25,286 nucleotides of DNA from a virus. Its lineage: Duplodnaviria; Heunggongvirae; Uroviricota; Caudoviricetes. How positions within the stretch are numbered: the stretch's first letter is position 1; each line of letters opens with the position of its first letter. Position numbers and translations under genes: made by a program. The notes under the pieces were generated by a model. The model was given only the letters and a program-made list of their open reading frames with translations. It had not been told where the DNA came from and did not search any database. The stretch is taken from IMG/VR virus record IMGVR_UViG_2529293142_000022; one strand, given 5' to 3'. Positions 18,961 through 19,604 of this stretch are shown one piece after another.

Positions 18961-18980
18961 TTGTTAGACTTTTCTAACAT
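18961..18980. promoter_or_regulatory. Operator-like palindrome TTGTTAGA-cttt-TCTAACAT in the dicC/dicA intergenic region
   Basis: 7 of 8 arm positions symmetric; same motif recurs after dicA. Confidence 0.45.
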
Positions 18981-19028
18981 TATTGTGCGCGGGATACCTA
19001 AGTCAAGAAAAATTAGAATTACCTAACT

Positions 19029-19436
19029 ATGGATACAAGAACCCTGGGCCAGCGAGTTCTGGCGCGACGAAAAGAATTACGCTTAACACAACGAGAAGCC
19101 GCGCGCCTCGCTGGAGTTGCTCACGTCACAATTTCACAATGGGAAAGAGACGAAACCCAGCCAGTCGGAAAACGATTGTTTGCTTTAGCGGATGCTCTGA
19201 AGTGCTCACCTACATGGCTAATGTTTGGTGACGAAGACAAGGCACCAGTGCCTGCACAAGAACTTCATGTGGAAACAGAGCTAACTCCCAACCACAAAGA
19301 ATTGATCGAATTATTCGATGCTCTTCCATCTTCCGAGCAGGAAGCCTTGCTGTCTGAAATGCGCGCAAGAGTAGAAAACTTCAACAAACTCTTCGAAGAA
19401 ATGCTTAAAGCGCGTAAAAATAAATCAATAAAATAA
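19029..19436 (+). CDS. dicA: DicA repressor (XRE-family helix-turn-helix), 135 aa
   Basis: LTQREAARLAGVAHVTISQWERDETQP helix-turn-helix; C-terminus …MRARVENFNKLFEEMLKAR as in DicA. Confidence 0.9.
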   Translation: MDTRTLGQRVLARRKELRLTQREAARLAGVAHVTISQWERDETQPVGKRLFALADALKCSPTWLMFGDEDKAPVPAQELHVETELTPNHKELIELFDALPSSEQEALLSEMRARVENFNKLFEEMLKARKNKSIK

Positions 19437-19471
19437 CATTCTTTTCAAGTGATTAGTTGCGCCCACCCTTT

Positions 19472-19491
19472 TTGTTAGATCAATCTAACAA
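19472..19491. promoter_or_regulatory. Perfect operator palindrome TTGTTAGA-tcaa-TCTAACAA upstream of the ydfA-dicB operon
   Basis: 8-4-8 inverted repeat between dicA and ydfA; a degenerate third copy at 19509-19524. Confidence 0.5.
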
Positions 19492-19604
19492 AAAACACTT
19501 GCCTCTCATGTTAGGTTATTCTAAATTATTTTCCATCAAGACACCGCACGGTGTTCTCAGCAAACAGTTCCGCTACCCCGGCGTTAAGGGGAAATGAGGT
19601 CAGC

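Follow-up and report, generated by a model that had tools for sequence, protein, structure and literature searches.

The dic region of Escherichia coli K-12 and related switches

The closest described counterpart of the locus analysed here is the immunity region of the Qin prophage in Escherichia coli K-12, for which three operators, named Oc, Om and Oa, have been reported (Bejar et al., 1986, 1988, as cited in PMC10448788 and PMC3441716). The DicA operator Oc has the sequence 5'-TTGTTAGTCATAACTAACAA; in vivo it supports repression that depends on dicA, and replacing one A by C in the right half-site abolishes this (Yun et al., 2012, PMC3441716). Oa and Om are predicted sites, neither of which was bound by DicA in isolation in vivo (data not shown in that study), and Oc alone among the K-12 sites has experimental DicA binding. 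The transcription start of dicC was mapped in the same work (PMC3441716).

Deletion of dicA derepresses the K-12 promoter dicBp 22-fold. This promoter is bistable in a DicC-dependent manner, and Rem acts as an antirepressor that inactivates DicA (Ragunathan et al., 2023, PMC10448788). The DicA site listed for dicB in RegulonDB is of low evidence and unknown location according to the authors of Reg-Seq (PMC7567609). ChIP-seq of K-12 DicC gave its strongest peak at the dic locus; the sites inferred lie to either side of dicA, and their motif is a TTNG...CNAA palindrome. ChIP-qPCR shows enrichment of the host TetR-family factor YjdC at this locus as well (PMC9283627); neither the gSELEX review (PMC8249747) nor the genetic-interaction paper (PMC9283627) gives a motif for DicA or YjdC.

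Among more distant systems, the c2 repressor of phage P22 has an 18-bp operator consensus, ATTTAAG-ATAT-CTTAAAT. In the c2-DNA complex, V33 lies amid the thymine methyl groups of TTAA, and Q37 makes contact at the half-site's inner end (PMC5175364).

Gene organization and protein families

The window, which is the whole stretch of 25,286 nucleotides analysed, is a prophage of the Qin type carried by an E. coli chromosome. Its 18600-20000 stretch is 99.9% identical to NZ_CP027462, and at least 80% of this stretch is present in 539 of 5,426 complete E. coli genomes (about 10%). The gene order, dicC(-)/dicA(+)/ydfA-ydfB-ydfC-DicF-dicB, is that of K-12 Qin. The dicC-like gene, encoding a Cro analogue of 75 aa, lies on the minus strand at 18721..18948 and is divergent from the dicA-like repressor gene (19029..19436, plus strand, 135 aa), 80 bp apart. 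The first gene of the repressed operon, ydfA, is found at 19605..19760 (plus strand), and the open reading frames of ydfB and ydfC follow it. The small RNA DicF at 20481..20532 (plus strand) matches Rfam RF00039 with 76.7 bits against a gathering score of 48, and dicB, encoding the 62-aa cell-division inhibitor, occupies 20707..20895 (plus strand). The same downstream operon is annotated in the 99.9%-identical genome.

The repressor is 55% identical to the K-12-type DicA and does not carry that name in the PGAP annotation. It nevertheless passes the NCBIfam DicA model NF007257 with 224.7 bits (cut-off 101), its residues 1-134 covering profile positions 1-134 of 135; the K-12-type protein scores 234.3 bits on the same model. 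The N-terminal 71 aa match the DNA-binding domain of P22 c2 (E = 1e-18). Pfam finds only HTH_3, HTH_31 and HTH_19 in the 135-aa protein and no cleavage or peptidase domain. The protein thus combines a P22 c2-like N-terminal HTH with a short C-terminal domain that has no RecA-cleavage or peptidase module, as DicA-family repressors do, and judged by these profile matches it is a divergent allele of the DicA family. The window DicC matches the NCBIfam DicC model NF007282, which the K-12 protein also passes, over its full length with 165.8 bits (cut-off 130). It matches Pfam P22_Cro with 45.9 against a cut-off of 30.2, and is 86% identical to the K-12-type DicC.

The preliminary description had considered this immunity region intact, which holds for the repressor and operator core. 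Elsewhere in the window, an IS256-family element cuts the antirepressor gene rem short, unlike in K-12 Qin; the Rem antirepressor input has therefore probably been lost.

Palindromic sites around dicA

Three copies of a palindrome around dicA had been noted beforehand: a near-perfect one in the dicC/dicA divergent region, a perfect 8-4-8 one between dicA and ydfA, and a degenerate one after it. All three are present, and direct reading gives 15 of the 16 specified bases for the first (site A, 18961-18980, TTGTTAGA-CTTT-TCTAACAT, with one mismatch, also written TTGTTAGACTTTTCTAACAT) and 16 of 16 for the second (site C, 19472-19491, TTGTTAGA-TCAA-TCTAACAA, also written TTGTTAGATCAATCTAACAA). An unsupervised repeat search extends the perfect copy to an enclosing 12-2-12 palindrome at 19469-19494. 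The degenerate copy at 19509-19524 (TGTTAGGTTATTCTAA) is the core of a 20-bp site, site D, at 19508-19527 (ATGTTAGG-TTAT-TCTAAATT, also written ATGTTAGGTTATTCTAAATT). The earlier count was one short, since a fourth, weak copy, site B, lies at 19010-19029 (AAATTAGA-ATTA-CCTAACTA, also written AAATTAGAATTACCTAACTA), its last base being the A of the dicA ATG. The unsupervised search places A, C and D in one repeat family and ties D to B.

A scan of the whole 25,286-bp window for TTGTTAGA-N4-TCTAACAA at no more than three mismatches returned sites A and C only, with 0.09 matches expected, and none of 100 dinucleotide-preserving shuffles contained two or more. At this threshold, no other part of the window, the surroundings of rem and of the late genes included, holds a further copy. 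Scored against TTGTTAG-N6-CTAACAA, site A has 13 and site C 14 of the 14 half-site positions. Sites B and D have four mismatches each in these 14 positions and are not significant singly, because the window holds six matches of that grade. Two of the six, B and D, nevertheless lie within 50 bp of a strong copy (P about 0.001 by hand estimate), in positions homologous to the weak sites of the K-12-type locus. The other four (1607, 13943, 16740 and 18610) were set aside, since one arm of each is poor and their positions lend no support.

Sites A and C are 20-bp inverted repeats of the Oc class. The half-sites and spacing of K-12 Oc are identical to those of the window sites, TTGTTAG-N6-CTAACAA, and only the central 6 bp differ. 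The published operator could have proved to be a different sequence, which would have spoken against the preliminary description; it shares the half-sites, and the operator reading therefore stands. By position, site A is the equivalent of K-12 Oc and site B that of Oa. The K-12 dicC-proximal site likewise overlaps the dicC -10, starting at -69 from the dicA ATG as against -68 in the window, and the K-12-type locus resembles the window also in that a weak site adjoins the dicA ATG and a pair of sites flanks the dicBp -35. The two loci differ at the dicBp-proximal site, which is a perfect palindrome in the window and carries three mismatches in the K-12 type (ATGTTAGCTATAGCATACAA). K-12 Om has no recognisable counterpart in the window. 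No third site with at most four of 14 half-site mismatches was found between A and B or upstream of C, so that each control region has two sites rather than the three reported for K-12 or the three of the lambdoid tripartite arrangement.

Promoters relative to the sites

The only sigma-70-like promoter called in 18850-19700 is a predicted dicC promoter on the minus strand (18979..19006), with a -35 TTGACT (19006-19001), a 16-bp spacer and a -10 AATAAT (18984-18979), matching 10 of 12 consensus positions; the prediction is by consensus. The GTCAAG block of this promoter region is conserved in all alleles compared. The right end of site A overlaps this -10 and the predicted start of dicC falls inside the site, the position expected of an Oc-class operator. 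The distance from the beginning of site A to the dicA ATG is 68 bp, much as in some 20 related loci.

The promoter dicBp is predicted at 19499..19527 on the plus strand, with a -35 TTGCCT (19499-19504), a 17-bp spacer and a -10 TAAATT (19522-19527). We infer this position from alignment with the K-12-type TTGACC-17-TAATCT and with other alleles; its 8 of 12 consensus matches fall below the threshold of the promoter scanner, and it was not called in 18850-19700. Site C ends 7 bp upstream of the predicted -35, which is bracketed by sites C and D, and D occupies the spacer and the -10. Sites C and D stand 36 bp apart centre to centre, or about 3.4 helical turns, with no obvious same-face spacing. 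Because the strongest site, C, lies upstream of the -35 and off the core promoter, repression of dicBp may depend on the weak site D. The core promoter could be repressed by cooperative occupancy of D, by occlusion of upstream contacts or by looping to site A, 511 bp away. As the preliminary description had it, the sites lie at the positions expected of DicA operators that would control the switch and the ydfABC-dicF-dicB operon, and their offsets recur in about 20 loci.

A TAGAAT hexamer (19014-19019) inside site B is a candidate -10 for dicA. It is followed by no Shine-Dalgarno sequence, which would fit a leaderless dicA transcript, like that of lambda cI from PRM.

Covariation of half-sites and repressors across alleles

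The comparison took in the K-12-type locus, another four loci of E. coli, 21 from other genomes, and four phages. In about 12 alleles from Enterobacterales and phages, a palindrome stands 67-69 bp before the repressor ATG. At this distance 20 of the 24 scored loci have a 7-N6-7 or 8-N4-8 palindrome with at least five of seven symmetric arm positions, and 19 of the 24 have at least six. A second palindrome, some 34-40 bp beyond the repressor stop codon, is present in several loci, and in E. ruysiae, E. albertii and Citrobacter relatives a perfect copy like that at site C follows the stop codon by 36-40 bp.

The arms fall into several types. TTGTTAG/CTAACAA is found in the window, E. ruysiae, E. 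albertii, Citrobacter, the K-12 type and, with one arm mismatch, Rahnella; TCCTTAG/CTAAGGA in loci L003-L005, Enterobacter, the PPompW phages and a Klebsiella phage; GCATTGAG/CTCAATGC in the L006 type; and TTGTTGAG/TTTAACAA in Citrobacter braakii, while Superficieibacter pairs a left arm TTGTTGAG with a right arm TTAAACAA. The two arms change together. In a count over 17 distinct sites, symmetric cells make up 88.2%; the figure for shuffles is 73.8%, with none of 500 as high as that observed, and with the partner arm slid it is 38-54%. Two-sided arm changes number 26 against 9.9 expected, across six of eight arm positions. These counts overstate the independent events because the loci are related. 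Repressors of the TQQ/SQQ + FKW class (L018, L021, L022, L024 and phage phiES15) were left out of this argument, because they have no palindrome at the canonical offset and seem to use a different TAAC-N4-GTTA arrangement instead.

Half-site bases also go with residues of the repressor. In six divergent types of repressor, a helix 2 that starts with T-Q-R accompanies an outer TTG; a start of S-Q-A or S-Q-S accompanies TCC, and one of S-Q-N accompanies GCA. A helix 3 with ...SQWE is accompanied by TTAG and a 6-bp spacer, and one with ...SLWE by TTGAG and a 4-bp spacer. The two elements combine, TQR with SLW corresponding to TTGTTGAG, and a Klebsiella phage that lay outside the derivation of the pattern fits it, having S-Q-S, SQW and a perfect TCCTTAGGTTTTCCTAAGGA. 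The L003-type repressor has a recognition helix identical to that of the window (AHVTISQWERDE) and yet a different outer triplet.

The window repressor retains V33 and Q37 of P22 c2, and its Arg22 would be the residue that reads the outer G. Specificity in the DicA family may then be modular and lie partly outside the recognition helix, the residue after the helix-2 Gln (Arg22 in the window and in K-12, Ala or Ser elsewhere) reading the outer triplet (TTG or TCC) and residue 37 (Gln or Leu) setting the inner core and spacing (TTAG-N6 or TTGAG-N4). We put this scheme forward tentatively, as possible but open to real doubt.

Weak sites and proteins other than DicA

The right half of site D, TCTAAATT, is fixed across alleles, and it contains the conserved TAAATT of the predicted dicBp -10. 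Its degenerate appearance and the constancy of this half are explained by that overlap. It might then be asked whether the copy at 19508-19527 is merely a -10 region that resembles the palindrome, the more so as four of its 14 half-site positions mismatch, a grade reached six times in the window, and as the weak K-12 sites were negative when binding of DicA was assayed in vivo (PMC3441716). The left half, however, is allele-specific in the same manner as the strong sites: the window and K-12 have TGTTAG, E. albertii has TTGTTAG without a mismatch, SQA alleles have CCTTAG or TCTTAG, and the SLW allele has AATGAG. The distance between C and D is constant at 35-36 bp in the window, the K-12 type and L003. 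A left half that varies with the repressor beside a fixed right half argues that the copy joins a genuine operator half-site to part of a promoter, and a mere promoter resemblance is unlikely.

Site B tracks another protein. The DicC recognition helix ...RLAS(V/L/I)xxW goes with TTAG-AATTNC-CTAA at site B, and ...(D/E)(P/R)SAVSQW with TTAAG-ATAT-CTAAA, regardless of the Oc sequence. Because B varies with the Cro-like protein more closely than with the repressor, and K-12 Oa was not bound by DicA, we think that site B would be primarily a DicC site that shuts off dicA, DicA binding there being uncertain. By analogy with the K-12 results, site B, and possibly site D, may not be DicA sites.

The same observations bear on a wider alternative, in which some or all copies act mainly through DicC or the host YjdC. 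The strongest K-12 DicC ChIP-seq peak lies here and its TTNG...CNAA motif fits the inner core of the sites, site B covaries with DicC, neither Oa nor Om was bound by DicA in K-12 (PMC3441716), and YjdC, which may be an additional player at the dic locus, is enriched there (PMC9283627). Against this, repression through K-12 Oc requires dicA in vivo (PMC3441716), and YjdC has no reported motif. The outer three half-site bases, moreover, covary with helix 2 of DicA rather than with DicC, since the window and L003 differ in the outer triplet (TTG and TCC) although their DicC HTH sequences are almost the same. In lambdoid phages, CI and Cro share operators, so that binding of DicC or YjdC would not be exclusive of DicA operators in any case. 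That proteins other than DicA are the main users of the palindromes is improbable.

Hairpins and chance similarity

Operators bound by the repressor also account for the data better than nucleic-acid hairpins, such as a terminator after dicA and a 5' stem-loop on the dicC mRNA. Any palindrome folds, the RNA of 19460-19505 forms an 11-bp stem of -10.2 kcal/mol (z = -6.6), and arm-to-arm covariation would be compatible with a hairpin too. The stem of site C, however, is AU-rich and is followed by AAAAAACAC, with no U-tract, its z value is only -1.8 in a 99-nt context, and no terminator was called at this palindrome in the scan of 18850-19700; a terminator at the perfect palindrome was rejected on these grounds. 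A hairpin also fails to explain the covariation with the repressor HTH, the half-site-only conservation at D and the genetics of K-12 Oc, which makes it a very improbable account. Chance similarity is effectively refuted by the shuffle statistics of the strong copies and the offsets shared with about 20 other loci, even if the intergenic DNA is AT-rich and weaker matches with four or five mismatches are common (60 in the window).

Comparison with other repressor systems

The locus shares with the immC region of P22 (PDB 2R1J, 3JXB) the homologous N-terminal repressor domain, a DicC that matches P22_Cro, dyad-symmetric operators with an A/T-rich central spacer, and divergent repressor and cro genes. 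Its sites do not fit the P22 c2 operator consensus. They are 20 bp long instead of 18, their half-site is TTGTTAG and not ATTTAAG, their TTA(A)G cores lie 2 bp further apart, and there are two per side and not three adjacent ones. The C-terminal domain of the window repressor is short, unrelated to that of c2 and without a module for RecA-mediated cleavage.

The likeness to lambda CI and Cro is one of arrangement. In both, the operators at divergent promoters are shared by competing proteins, a repressor and its Cro analogue, and another operator cluster governs a leftward or early operon; bistability has been reported for K-12 dicBp (PMC10448788). The proteins and operator sequences are different, the window sites are 36 and 49 bp apart and not about 24 bp, and there is no SOS cleavage, induction in K-12 proceeding through the antirepressor Rem. 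In its short repressor without a cleavage domain, the window resembles Gifsy-type systems with antirepressor-controlled, non-cleavable repressors, from which the truncation of rem and the probable loss of its input set it apart.

Proposed switch and implications

Taken on sequence and comparative grounds, the palindromes are probably operators of the Qin-type prophage immunity switch, to which we give a probability of about 0.85. A dimer of the DicA-family repressor would bind the 20-bp sites TTGTTAG-N6-CTAACAA. Since site A covers the -10 and start of dicC, repressor bound there would shut off dicC, and by analogy with K-12 it would also stimulate dicA. As C and D flank the predicted dicBp -35 and D covers the -10, bound repressor would silence ydfABC-dicF-dicB. 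At site B, which overlaps the start of dicA, most likely DicC, or else excess DicA, would shut off dicA. DicC would recognise the inner TTAG...CTAA core of the same sites, and the action of DicC and DicA at common sites would make the switch bistable.

The system of these putative operators is known, the allele here being a divergent one, and their biology is the expected one; what goes beyond current knowledge are two hypotheses, the recognition pattern and the cross-immunity that it predicts with K-12 DicA. Upstream of ydfA, the perfect copy of the Oc half-sites pinpoints where DicA should act at dicBp, so that site C offers a predicted location for a site that in K-12 is recorded at low evidence and without a location according to the Reg-Seq authors.

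If the modular reading is true, the window allele and K-12 DicA, at 55% identity, would be homo-immune, and in strains that carry two or more Qin-type prophages the dicB operon of either could come under the control of the other's repressor, while an L003/PPompW-type allele with the very same recognition helix would be hetero-immune. The comparison of alleles thus provides a testable residue-to-base pattern and a prediction of cross-immunity for Qin-type prophages.

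Boundaries of the immunity cassette

Comparison of the window with the dicA/dicC loci L002-L006 delimits a variable immunity cassette of about 18800-19540, which begins inside the part of dicC that encodes the N-terminal half of the protein and ends shortly after the -10 element (19522-19527) of dicBp, the predicted promoter of ydfABC-dicF-dicB. Outside it, these alleles are near-identical both in the last 40 residues of DicC, at its C-terminus, and in all sequence from CATCAAGACACCG onward. The cassette edge at the promoter is a classic lambdoid mosaic boundary. Directly 3' of the predicted dicBp start lies a perfect 6-2-6 palindrome, ACACCG-CA-CGGTGT (19541-19554), situated in a block that is invariant across all E. 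coli-type alleles while the upstream operators vary. Its RNA forms a short 5' hairpin, and the stability of the segment as RNA was not above that of shuffled sequences (z = -0.08). The palindrome may act to stabilise the mRNA at its 5' end, or as a site for a conserved factor.

Features within the operators

The predicted operator site B (19010-19029) contains the hexamer TAGAAT (19014-19019), which agrees with the -10 consensus at 5 of 6 bases and is located 9 nt upstream of the dicA ATG (19029); in other alleles this position is occupied by TAGCAT or TAAGAT. No Shine-Dalgarno sequence is found between TAGAAT and the ATG. The arrangement suggests that dicA mRNA is leaderless, with its putative promoter covered by site B, similarly to lambda PRM and OR3. 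Site C (19472-19491), the perfect operator copy, carries a GATC site for Dam methylation (19478-19481) in its central spacer. GATC is absent from site A (18961-18980), the equivalent of the published K-12 operator Oc, and E. albertii has GACC in place of GATC in the site C spacer. The GATC is probably incidental.

Antirepressor and other elements in the window

The gene rem, encoding the DicA antirepressor, is truncated in the window, where approximately its last 13 codons are left (10115-10153, minus strand). The remainder of rem and its upstream region are replaced by a 1,314-bp segment (10146-11459) having an IS256-family transposase (Pfam Transposase_mut) split in three ORFs (10305-11081, 11042-11284 and 11238-11387). 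In the E. coli genome NZ_CP027462, elsewhere near-identical to the window, rem is intact. Because of this truncation, the Rem route to dicBp activation has probably been lost in the window. Rfam matches comprise two cspA-type thermoregulator 5' UTRs (1378-1763 and 4272-4664), which belong to the Qin prophage cold-shock genes, and a sok antitoxin RNA (14861-15032), which belongs to the hokD locus; these are ordinary Qin cargo.

Related immunity types in other genomes

DicA-family repressors with helix 3 of the type ...VS(V/I)FKWE occur at the comparison loci L018, L021, L022, L024 and L031 (phage phiES15), where no palindrome lies at the canonical offset. These loci have instead TAAC-N4-GTTA-type repeats, with half-sites reversed in orientation, e.g., ACTAACTTTTGTTAGT located 3' of the repressor stop codon in phiES15. 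The sequenced Escherichia phage PhiR42_1 (PV340562; from ECOR13) has a K-12-type dicA/dicC module, annotated as cI/Cro, with a helix-turn-helix segment and Oc identical to the K-12 type and nearly identical dicBp sites. The "cryptic" Qin immunity type is thus also present in a deposited complete phage genome.
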